Notes under the pieces: model-generated
Database searches by the model: none
Told to the model about the DNA's origin: nothing
What the model saw: only the letters and a program-made list of their open reading frames with translations
Source of the DNA: Escherichia phage vB_EfeM_pEP20
DNA: 64,000 nt
Sequence record: OQ743992
Reading direction: 5' to 3' (one strand)
In this document: piece by piece, positions 18,840-20,520 of the stretch
Layout: each line of letters begins with the position of its first letter
How positions within the stretch are numbered: the first letter of the stretch is position 1
Translations under genes and position numbers: made by a program

Positions 18840-19140
18840 ATCTTTAAGAGGGGTTTTTAAGTGAGGTATGGTAAGGCGCGGTGAGGTCAGGTAATGTGAT
18901 GTTTGGTTTGGTGCGGTGATGTGCTGTCCGGTAATGTCCGGTGCGGTAAGGTATGGGTAGTTAGTCTCAGCTACATTAAAATGAAACTTACCTTTTTAAA
19001 AGGTCTTTAAGAGGGTTTTTTAATAAGGTCTGGTGTAGTAGGGTTGGGCATGGTATAGTCCGGTGTGGTGTGGCACGGTATGGGTGGATGGTAGTAGCCA
19101 CGTTAAAAATCTACCAAGTTTCTAAAGAGTCTTCTGTTGA
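18840..19140. repeat. GGT-periodic repeat block R1 with conserved flanking modules
   Basis: About 300 bp non-coding with GG spaced every 6-8 nt and conserved modules (AAGGTCTTTAAGAGGGTTTTT header, GGTATGGGTAGTTAGTCTCAGCTACATTAAAATGA tail) shared with R2. Confidence 0.6.
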
Positions 19141-19191
19141 GGGTTCTTTACAAACAACTTAACAATCAACTAAAGTGTGGAGCTAAATGCT

Positions 19192-19779
19192 ATGAAACTG
19201 TTAAATATCAAAATCACTGGTACTCGTCCTTTCCTGAGCCATAACGATACGTTGTCAGACCCGTTAAATCCTCTGACAAAATATCACAAGTCTCTGTCCA
19301 GTAAACGTAAAAAGACTGACGAAGACTATGCGCTCTTAGCAGAAAGCCAACTGGTAACTTCTTGTTACTACGATGAGCAACTAGGTTTTGTTATGAACGG
19401 TGAGATGATTGAGGCTTGCATCAAGTCTGGTGCAAAACTCAACAAACTTGGTAAGGTAATTGACCGAGCCATTATGCTGACAGATGTAGTCTTCCCAATG
19501 ACTATCAAGAACTGTCCAGCAAACCCACAAGAACTTGCTAAGAATCCAGACTTTATCTATGCTAAGTCTGTTAAGATTGGTACAGCACGAGTTATGAGCT
19601 ACCGTCCAATCTTCCGTGACTGGTCTGTAGAGTTCGGTTTGATGTTCGATGAAGAGCAAATCACACGAGAGGAACTCCTGATGGTTCTGGAAAATGCTGG
19701 TAACCTTTGTGGTGTAGGTGATTGGCGTCCACGCTTTGGTCGTTTTTCTGTAGAAGTTATTTCAGAAGGTAACGTTTAA
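19192..19779 (+). CDS. hypothetical protein (about 196 aa)
   Basis: ATG at 19192 (track alternative start at 19177). Confidence 0.5.
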
Positions 19780-19781
19780 TT

Positions 19782-20222
19782 ATGAATACAAAAGCATTAG
19801 CAGCAAAGTTTAGTTACGGTGACACTGTATCACATTCTGAGATGGACACCTTCTTAGGTATTGTGAAGCCAACTTATCAAGGCGACATTGTTAAGTACGA
19901 AGATGAAATGAAGGCTTATGCACTTACACGTCTAAACCGACTTGAGAAGTTTATTGAGAAGCTTCTTAAAGAAGAGAAGATTTATCTGGTTGCTTCAATG
20001 GGTGTTGGTTATCGTGTGGTTGAACCTAAACATCAAGCAACTATTGCAAAACGTAAAATGTCTGGTAAGATTGGTCGAGCTTTAAAGCAAGCCACTCAAG
20101 CTATTGAGAATGTGAACACTATGGAACTTAGCCATCAAGAACGCTCACGACTGATTGAACAGCAAAACCACTTAGCTGCTATGAAAGCTAACATTAACAA
20201 GCAACGTAGAAAACCTTTCTAA
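19782..20222 (+). CDS. hypothetical protein (146 aa)
   Basis: Track ORF 3 nt after the upstream stop. Confidence 0.5.
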   Translation: MNTKALAAKFSYGDTVSHSEMDTFLGIVKPTYQGDIVKYEDEMKAYALTRLNRLEKFIEKLLKEEKIYLVASMGVGYRVVEPKHQATIAKRKMSGKIGRALKQATQAIENVNTMELSHQERSRLIEQQNHLAAMKANINKQRRKPF

Positions 20223-20230
20223 GTTGACTA

Positions 20231-20257
20231 GGTAGCCTCTTCGGAGGCTCCTTTTTA
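20231..20257 (+). terminator. rho-independent terminator
   Basis: Hairpin AGCCTC-TTCG-GAGGCT followed by CTTTTT. Confidence 0.6.
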
Positions 20258-20259
20258 AA

Positions 20260-20520
20260 AGGTCTTTAAACAGGGTCTTTTAATAAGGTGCGGTGCTGTC
20301 CTGTTCTGTAGTGTCTGGTAAGACCTAGTAATGTTCGGTCAGGTATGGGTAGTTAGTCTCAGCTACATTAAAATGAGACTTACATCACTTAAGAGTCTTT
20401 TAAGAGGGTTTTTAAGTGAGGTGTGGCACGGTAATGTTAGGTAGGGTCAGGTCAGGTCAGGTGAGGTAAGGTAAGGTAATGTATGGAAGGATGGCAGTAG
20501 CCTTATAAAAAATCTGCCAA
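20260..20520. repeat. GGT-periodic repeat block R2 (second copy of the R1 module family)
   Basis: Same headers and tails as R1 in swapped order, with GGTCAGGTCAGGTCAGGTGAGGTAAGGTAAGGTAATG. Confidence 0.6.

Follow-up and report, generated by a model that had tools for sequence, protein, structure and literature searches.

A 64,000-nucleotide stretch of the genome of Escherichia phage vB_EfeM_pEP20 (sequence record OQ743992; hereafter the window) almost certainly holds, at positions 18770-20520, a complete type II locus of the Viral Interference Programmable Repeat (VIPR) system, in which the guide-RNA genes vr1 and vr2 lie upstream and vr3 and vr4 downstream of the protein genes vipr and vap1. 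The source genome is that of a Felix O1-like myovirus (Felixounavirus), and its segment 18700-20650 is 99.6% identical to that of Escherichia phage PHB11 and 90-95% identical to those of more than 100 other relatives. The sequence features that mark type II VIPR of the clade of phage SUSP1 were all found here: the Vipr protein, flanking guide RNAs (vrRNAs) on the same strand, the GGY/NN pattern, a pseudoknot tail, vap1, and non-self targets that are matched with one base skipped between dinucleotides (skip 1).

VIPR was reported in two bioRxiv preprints of April-June 2026, together with the structure PDB 36pp (10.64898/2026.04.26.720920; 10.64898/2026.04.26.720927). Its components are Vipr, a phage-encoded minimal RAMP protein of one RRM with G-loop and thumb, an accessory vap gene, and vrRNAs composed of 9-16 YNNGG repeats and a 3' tail pseudoknot (10.64898/2026.04.26.720920; 10.64898/2026.04.26.720927). 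The SUSP1 vrRNAs, of ~100 nt, were seen by small-RNA sequencing and co-purify with Vipr; the target, double-stranded DNA, is set by their NN dinucleotides, with each third base passed over (10.64898/2026.04.26.720920; 10.64898/2026.04.26.720927). GFP and phage assays with SUSP1 showed that binding represses transcription of the target and that vap1 enhances protection, and type II vap genes in general are predicted to have DNA-binding products (10.64898/2026.04.26.720920; 10.64898/2026.04.26.720927). By cryo-electron microscopy (cryo-EM), the complex is a right-handed filament with one protomer per repeat, in which the flipped-out GGY is held by H17, D177, R138, W178, R179, E71/M72 and C173, while K33 touches the target backbone (10.64898/2026.04.26.720920; 10.64898/2026.04.26.720927). 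The SUSP1 clade, defined by >90% identity to SUSP1 Vipr, comprises 13 loci, and 18 of 20 clade targets lie on the same E. coli satellite (10.64898/2026.04.26.720920; 10.64898/2026.04.26.720927). The RAMP proteins of CRISPR have been proposed to descend from VIPR. Neither PHB11 nor other Felixounavirus names were found in the supplement of the VIPR preprint.

The vipr cassette and its flanking arrays

The assignment starts from the protein encoded between the repeats. A profile of 41 homologues of this 195-aa protein returned a single PDB match, 36pp, "SUSP1 Vipr protein" (E = 1.8e-80), and the window protein alone matched the same entry over its full length (E = 1.5e-127). With 190 of 195 residues identical to the SUSP1 protein (97%), it falls within the >90% clade threshold. 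Its AlphaFold2 model (pLDDT 95.7) adopts a RAMP fold, for which the best PDB structural matches in Foldseek were the backbone subunits Csm3 and type VII Cas7. The RNA- and DNA-contacting residues H17, K33, E71, M72, R138, C173, D177, W178 and R179 are all present; the sole exception among the named contact residues checked is position 175, which is V in the window protein and T175 in the cryo-EM preprint. The vap1 product is identical at 144 of 146 positions (99%) to that of the gene after vipr in SUSP1, and a word-based homologue search with it returned near-identical proteins only. Pfam identified no domain in either protein, and PHROGs assigned both to "unknown function" families only. A first working idea, that a TRAP-like ring protein reads an RNA with a triplet every 5 nt, was abandoned when the neighbouring protein turned out to be a RAMP whose filament structure has been solved.

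An earlier note on this DNA, made from the letters alone, had placed two repeat blocks, R1 (18840-19140) and R2 (20260-20520), around a two-gene cassette. Both blocks lie at the coordinates given, and the cassette is there; the functional link between them, which is the key to the system, was not drawn in that note. Once the repeats are placed in register, each block resolves into two units, giving four in all (Table 1). Within a unit, a ~32-nt header built around TCTTTAAGAGGGTTTTT is followed by pentamers without gaps and then by a tail of 35-38 nt. The pentamer reads (G/T)G(T/C)NN and recurs with a strict, indel-free period of 5 nt, which replaces the GG spacing of 6-8 nt described earlier. 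GT-at-+5 periodicity reaches the threshold at exactly four sites of the window, all on the plus strand within R1 and R2, and never on its minus strand. The shared tail and header that had been noted are real: the 35-nt GGTATGGGTAGTTAGTCTCAGCTACATTAAAATGA occurs exactly twice (18950-18984 and 20342-20376; 0 expected in shuffles), and a TCTTTAAGAGGGTTTTT-like motif occurs at 18841, 19004 and 20397 with up to two mismatches, with a fourth, more diverged copy at ~20262. Their "swapped order" is produced by the pairing of two header types with two tail types (vr1 ii/a, vr2 i/b, vr3 i/a and vr4 ii/b). Outside the blocks, the header has one weak match in the window (three mismatches; 62602, minus strand).

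The blocks are non-coding, as had been proposed, and are overlapped only by short open reading frames of 30-37 aa. A protein-coding reading was rejected on this ground and because array lengths change by 5-nt steps between relatives and the NN positions are near-random. The sigma-70-like promoter, the terminator and the next promoter were all recovered, as consensus matches only, and the first of these promoters probably drives vr1-vr2-vipr-vap1. Between it and the vr1 header, a small hairpin, ACTGGTACTCACCAGC, lies at 18813-18828 and was scored by the scan as terminator-like on the minus strand; its 3' part with the bases that follow (GTACTCACCAGCATCAC) recurs almost unchanged before the header in relatives.

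Table 1. Features of the VIPR locus in the window, with the target sites predicted for its guides (positions are those of the window)
Feature	Position	Strand	Sequence or NN dinucleotides	Basis or remark
Sigma-70-like promoter	18770-18797	+	TTGACA-16-TATACT	consensus scan, 11/12 positions; upstream of vr1
Unit U1	18828-18992	+		header ii, array vr1, tail a
Header type ii, before vr1	18828-18859	+	CATCACTTAAGAATCTTTAAGAGGGGTTTTTA	kept upstream of matching units in relatives
vr1 guide array, 19 units	18860-18954	+	GA AT AA GC GA CA AA GA TT TT GC GA GC CC AA CC GC AA AT	
vr1 3' tail, type a pseudoknot	18955-18992	+		one C.A mismatch in stem 2
Unit U2	18993-19140	+		header i, array vr2, tail b
Header type i, before vr2	18993-19026	+	TTTTTAAAAGGTCTTTAAGAGGGTTTTTTAATAA	motif search and comparison with relatives
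vr2 guide array, 11 units	19027-19081	+	CT GT AG TG AT AT CC GT GT AC AT	
vr2 3' tail, type b pseudoknot	19082-19115	+		tail alignment
vipr, 195 aa	19192-19779	+		homology to SUSP1 Vipr protein
vap1, Vipr accessory protein, 146 aa	19782-20222	+		homology to SUSP1 vap1
Terminator-like hairpin (20234-20249) and T-run, after vap1	20234-20257	+		consensus scan
Unit U3	20253-20382	+		header i, array vr3, tail a
Header type i, before vr3	20253-20286	+		motif search and comparison with relatives
vr3 guide array, 12 units	20287-20346	+	GC GC CC TC AG CT AA CT AA TC CA AT	unit 8 degenerate
vr3 3' tail, type a pseudoknot	20347-20382	+		tail alignment
Unit U4	20383-20530	+		header ii, array vr4, tail b
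Header type ii, before vr4	20383-20414	+		motif search and comparison with relatives
vr4 guide array, 14 units	20415-20484	+	GA GT AC AA TA AG CA CA CA GA AA AA AA AT	
vr4 3' tail, type b pseudoknot	20485-20518	+		stems AAGG/CCTT and GGCAG/CTGCC compensatory relative to vr2
Next promoter-like site	20538-20566			consensus match
Predicted tape-measure sense site			GATATGAATGCAGACCAGAAAGAATCCTT	skip-1 match
Predicted tape-measure antisense site			GATTCTTTAGCTGAAGCACCAAAACCAGCAAA	skip-1 match
Predicted Dam-gene site			GCAGCACCATCCAGACTGAAAATAAATTCACG	skip-1 match
Predicted 109-aa-gene site			GATGCTACCAATTAAAGACAGCAACATGAAAAG	skip-1 match

The division of the pentamer into a fixed and a variable part emerges from 60 unique arrays collected from 22 related loci, the set to which the array statistics below refer. 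Its first three positions are constrained (G 77%, T 16% and A 7%; G 98%; T/C 100%), with entropies of 0.99, 0.16 and 0.50 bits, and positions 4 and 5, the NN, are near-random at 1.95 and 1.90 bits. Arrays are 9-19 units long. Their final unit carries the same AT in 49 of the 60, and this dinucleotide is therefore probably outside the guide. Both tail types fit H-type pseudoknots. The type a tail (16 variants) has 11 pairs with 99.4% of alignment cells paired and three compensatory pairs, in the second stem; the type b tail (seven variants) has nine pairs, 96.8% of cells paired and four compensatory pairs. In slid controls, the paired fraction collapses to 24-49%. As the independent changes are few, this covariation is supportive rather than conclusive.

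By homology to SUSP1, each array would be transcribed into an RNA of ~90-135 nt, with GGY-NN pentamers capped by the 3' pseudoknot. Vipr, as a minimal RAMP related to Cas7/Csm3, would polymerise along this RNA, one protomer per pentamer, flipping out and sequestering GGY, and the exposed NN would pair with a DNA strand read as NNxNNx..., each third base being passed over. Once bound, the filament would repress transcription of the target, through the filament and triplex mechanism described for SUSP1, and vap1 would strengthen this effect. Two suggestions of the earlier note, "small RNA genes" and "protein-binding arrays", thus pointed in the right direction, with the arrays as vrRNA genes that bind one Vipr protomer per pentamer at the level of RNA.

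Predicted guide targets in a chromosomal satellite

A BLAST search with R1 against complete E. coli genomes revealed vrRNA-like sequences in 152 chromosomes. These sequences lie in the satellites, islands of ~11 kb between two recombinase genes, one large and one small, with baseplate, tape-measure and HNH genes and, in some alleles, Dam methylase and helix-turn-helix genes. Insertions occur at several places in the chromosome (wrbA-ymdF, yecD/DUF72, tonB-yciI and lpxL-mdtG), and parts of one such island occur in 545 of 5426 complete E. coli genomes, in many mosaic alleles. The sample used here comprises 19 loci (L028-L038 and L040-L047; 323 kb in total). The satellite baseplate and tape-measure proteins are 67% and 32% identical in amino acids to the products of window genes at 33357-34130 and 34748-36379 (minus strand), a homology that fits a satellite dependent on this kind of phage. 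Neither vipr nor vap1 was found in any of the 19 satellites. A vrRNA-type tail motif is present, in one copy, in nine of them, and in five of the six also run through the array detector (L028-L031 and L035) a GGY/NN array lies just upstream of it. Satellites that carry vrRNA-type elements and lack vipr would need the Vipr of a helper.

Targets were sought as in the preprint, by joining the NN strings with 0-3 wildcard bases and scoring without gaps; shuffled guides served as controls. Guides of related phages, used as a positive control, were scored against satellites and reached up to 21/22, 27/30 and 30/34 with skip 1 only, while skip 0 and skip 2 stayed at a background of 60-70%. Against the first three satellites (L028-L030), the full-length guides of the window gave background matches only; targets emerged after 16 more satellite alleles had been sampled and, for vr1, only when its halves were scored separately.

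Three of the four guides gave matches beyond the reach of the shuffles. Units 1-10 of vr1 match the sense strand of the tape-measure gene at 19/20 positions in L030, L034, L035 and L041 (40 shuffles, at most 17) and at 17/20 in L029. Units 8-18 match the antisense strand of the same gene at 21/22 in L037, L038, L040, L044 and L046 (40 shuffles, at most 18). The latter target is the same tape-measure site as the former, in another allele group (L035:4601-4629, minus strand, for the 5' units; L037:4585-4616, plus strand, for the 3' units): units 1-10 read the codons D-M-N-A-D-Q-K-E-S-L and units 8-18 read F-A-G-F-G-A-S-A-K-E-S, overlapping at K-E-S. The guide vr3 matches the DNA N-6-adenine-methyltransferase (Dam) gene at 20/24 in L036, L043 and L046 (0 of 300 shuffles); one of its mismatches falls in the degenerate unit 8, GACCT (20322-20326), which lacks GGY and is GGCTC at the same position in the relative L020. 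The guide vr4 matches a hypothetical gene of 109 aa at 23/28 in L033 (L033:7052-7381; 0 of 300 shuffles), and the same gene gives its best match in L032, L037 and L036. For vr2, the candidate target in the tape-measure gene is marginal (18/22; L045 and L042); the version of this guide in phage wV8 reaches 19/22 (0 of 300 shuffles).

The matches of vr1, vr3 and vr4 were not seen with skip 0, 2 or 3. All target matches lie inside satellite genes, with none in the flanking chromosome, and their mismatches cluster at the tail-proximal units. At the vr1, vr2 and vr3 targets, the skipped base coincides with the wobble position of the codon. The window itself contains no self-target (best self-match 63-73%), and none of the four guides matches the phage's own baseplate and tape-measure genes (33357-36379, minus strand) above background. 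Exact gapped-pattern scans with vr1 and vr2 found nothing in IMG/VR or in the GTDB species genomes. A similar scan of JGI metagenomes gave a single match (L039), which was dismissed as chance: it lies in a contig of 23% GC that encodes a 3258-aa low-complexity protein, and the rest of the guide is mismatched.

Judged from sequence matches, it is conceivable, if doubtful at present, that vr1 is a two-in-one guide, with units 1-10 directed at the sense and units 8-18 at the antisense strand of one tape-measure site in two allele groups. If so, vr1 and vr2, with its candidate site in a third allele group, would together cover most tape-measure alleles, and vrRNAs could perhaps be lengthened or fused for broader range. 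A 19-unit relative of vr1 occurs in phage ASO1B (L003:1661-1755), sharing units 6-18 bar one and differing at the 5' end.

Because the guides match genes of the ~11-kb island, and because the island carries homologues of the phage's baseplate and tape-measure genes, the locus most likely arms the phage against a satellite that lives at its expense. By analogy with SUSP1, we infer that all four RNAs are made during infection by this phage and are directed at the satellite. A VIPR locus could instead serve to regulate genes of the host or of other phages, or its guides could be partly decayed, and such a role would accord with the lack of a perfect full-length target, the mismatches in every guide, the marginal significance of vr2 and the lack of any real match in the exact-pattern scans. 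We consider this improbable, as all four guides point to a single kind of element, several independent satellite alleles have their best matches in the same genes, the matches arise with skip 1 only and are unreached by shuffles, and the preprint places the great majority of SUSP1-clade targets on this satellite.

Several points nonetheless count against the interpretation of the locus as anti-satellite VIPR. Transcription, RNA ends and Vipr loading in this phage are taken over from SUSP1. No perfect full-length target was found among the 19 satellite loci, a small sample of the ~545 satellite-bearing genomes; the score of vr2 was reached by 4 of 300 shuffled guides, and it is codon position 2 that is skipped at the vr4 target. 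At 18-19 units, vr1 exceeds the 9-16 of the preprint, and its tail has A at position 18985, where the 15 other type a variants have G, leaving a C.A mismatch in stem 2 that is the sole unpaired cell of the type a alignment. About 23% of units carry T or A in place of the first G. Finally, vr3 and vr4 lie 3' of the terminator-like hairpin and, in the consensus scan, have no sigma-70 promoter of their own. In SUSP1, vrRNA1 was matured from a vector promoter when co-expressed with vipr (10.64898/2026.04.26.720920; 10.64898/2026.04.26.720927), which suggests that the RNA is processed, or that filament and pseudoknot protect it, and not that each unit has its own promoter.

Conservation in relatives and other readings of the repeats

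The comparison with related phages that the earlier note suggested found arrays beside vipr in 18 Felixounavirus-like contigs as well, with 1-3 upstream and 1-3 downstream of the gene and always on its strand. Where flanking genes are >90% identical, the arrays are only 70-85% identical. An identical copy of the vr4 guide occurs in two other phages, and the vr1, vr2 and vr3 guides were not found in any of the 21 related loci fetched. The association of arrays and gene extends further, to six loci with Vipr homologues of 37-40% identity, all of which show a same-strand, 5-nt-periodic, G-rich signal. Arrays beside vipr were read directly in L027 (GGTNN), L024 (GGCNN) and L022; in L023 and L026 the array signal comes from the scan and the array detector alone. 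L024 (2950-4503) has strict GGCNN arrays on either side of vipr and vap with hairpin elements interspersed, in L022 (4130-5390) a copy of the hairpin GAACGAAGCCGCTTCGCAAGAGGCGGTTTCC stands before each of about twelve short KGT arrays, and L025 (3570-4050) has looser arrays, spread over 450 nt of G-rich sequence with loose periodicity. Vipr and its pentamer arrays thus travel together across deep divergence.

The header is a further element of interest, specific to the vrRNA units of the phage. It was not found upstream of the three satellite vrRNAs compared (L028, L029 and L030); in two satellites read directly (L029 and L035), the vrRNA has a TTGACA-type promoter upstream and a leader of ~45-50 nt. 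The VIPR discovery preprint does not discuss the header, which may be a signal for processing such as an RNase site, for assembly or Vipr loading, or for promotion of transcription, and may represent a dedicated biogenesis or loading signal undescribed there. Rfam 15 gave no meaningful match over 17500-22000 at E <= 10, only weak snoRNA-like noise, and at E <= 0.01 no ribozyme or other family in five distant loci. ARAGORN predicted tRNAs only at 48-53 kb, with none at the repeat locus. These form a cluster of 26 tRNAs (48081-53345, minus strand) in which several short repeats between tRNAs are conserved, as is typical of Felix O1-like phages.

Two readings of the repeats that dispense with guide RNA were also weighed. 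Direct, non-coding repeats around a two-gene cassette recall replication-origin iterons, proposed in the earlier note, or a centromere-like protein-binding array, and GenBank records name these repeats DR_4 or a putative StbAB site. Such DNA-level function is highly improbable here. Iterons or parC have periods of ~11-22 bp, against 5 bp here; only the strand of vipr carries arrays in every locus examined, distant ones included; and hypervariability at two bases of each pentamer (40% of positions), even between near-identical phages, cannot be reconciled with a protein that binds DNA of fixed sequence. Moreover, the neighbouring protein is an RNA-binding RAMP of solved structure, and the SUSP1 arrays are transcribed and co-purify with Vipr. 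As remote, judged on the sequence and layout of the units, is a G-quadruplex or other G-rich 5' leader or 3' trailer that regulates vipr and vap1 in cis: R1 does lie between a promoter-like site and vipr, and GG runs do recur at short spacing, but the GG required for a quadruplex is missing from nearly a quarter of units (TGT, AGT or GAC instead; in vr3, five TGT, one AGT and one GAC among 12 units), unit number and NN content vary while GGY is kept, R2 sits after a terminator, and such an element would not predict specific skip-1 NN matches in satellite genes.

Comparison with known systems

As detailed accounts of SUSP1-clade type II VIPR have been available since April 2026, a locus of this kind is already known. 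The closest counterpart is that of SUSP1 itself, which shares with the window locus near-identical Vipr and vap1 proteins, GGY/NN arrays, both types of tail pseudoknot, the header motifs, the kind of satellite targeted and the one-nucleotide-skip code. SUSP1 has 1 + 3 vrRNAs, whereas two lie upstream and two downstream here; none of the four guides matches the four of SUSP1, and vr1 is longer than published vrRNAs and apparently has two target readings. What is specific to the present locus is therefore its 2 + 2 layout, its long vr1, its own set of guides and the predicted targets, namely three tape-measure allele groups and two other satellite genes. A composite vr1 and the header could inform the evolution and maturation of guides. 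More broadly, VIPR is a recently reported form of RNA-guided DNA recognition with a non-contiguous code, of which this locus offers a natural, complete example within the clade of the model system.

The same sequences have been deposited before under other names. In phage wV8 (EU877232), the 58-nt features labelled DR_4 run across a unit's tail and the following unit's header, and the record of KhF3 (KT184315) lists them as "direct repeat sequence4, possible binding site of StbAB". Unlike the present analysis, these records give a repeat or a guessed partition-protein site only, with no link to RNA or to Vipr, and the iteron or parC model differs from the locus in period, strand specificity and variability, as set out above. 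VIPR loci can be recognised from raw sequence by the strict 5-nt GGY periodicity where older phage records say only "direct repeats".

The trp leader RNA bound by TRAP offers a parallel in spacing. It carries 11 G/UAG triplets, separated by 2-3 nt, and is wrapped on a ring. In both cases an oligomeric protein recognises a conserved triplet at 5-nt intervals in single-stranded RNA; the RAMP protein here would form a helical filament and not a ring, the spacer bases carry information, and the outcome would be DNA targeting and not attenuation.

Class 1 CRISPR-Cas systems, in which Cas7 or Csm3 assembles on CRISPR RNA, are closer at the level of the protein. Neither a CRISPR repeat-spacer array nor cas1 or cas2 was found in 17000-22500; the locus has only the RAMP fold in common with CRISPR-Cas loci. 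This fold, with its G-rich loop and thumb, is accompanied in both systems by one protomer per fixed step of RNA, by periodic base flipping and by a variable guide with a conserved handle. In VIPR, however, the step is 5 nt and three of its bases are sequestered, leaving a non-contiguous guide; the target is double-stranded DNA with a skipped base, with no protospacer-adjacent motif reported; and the locus described here is encoded by a virulent phage.

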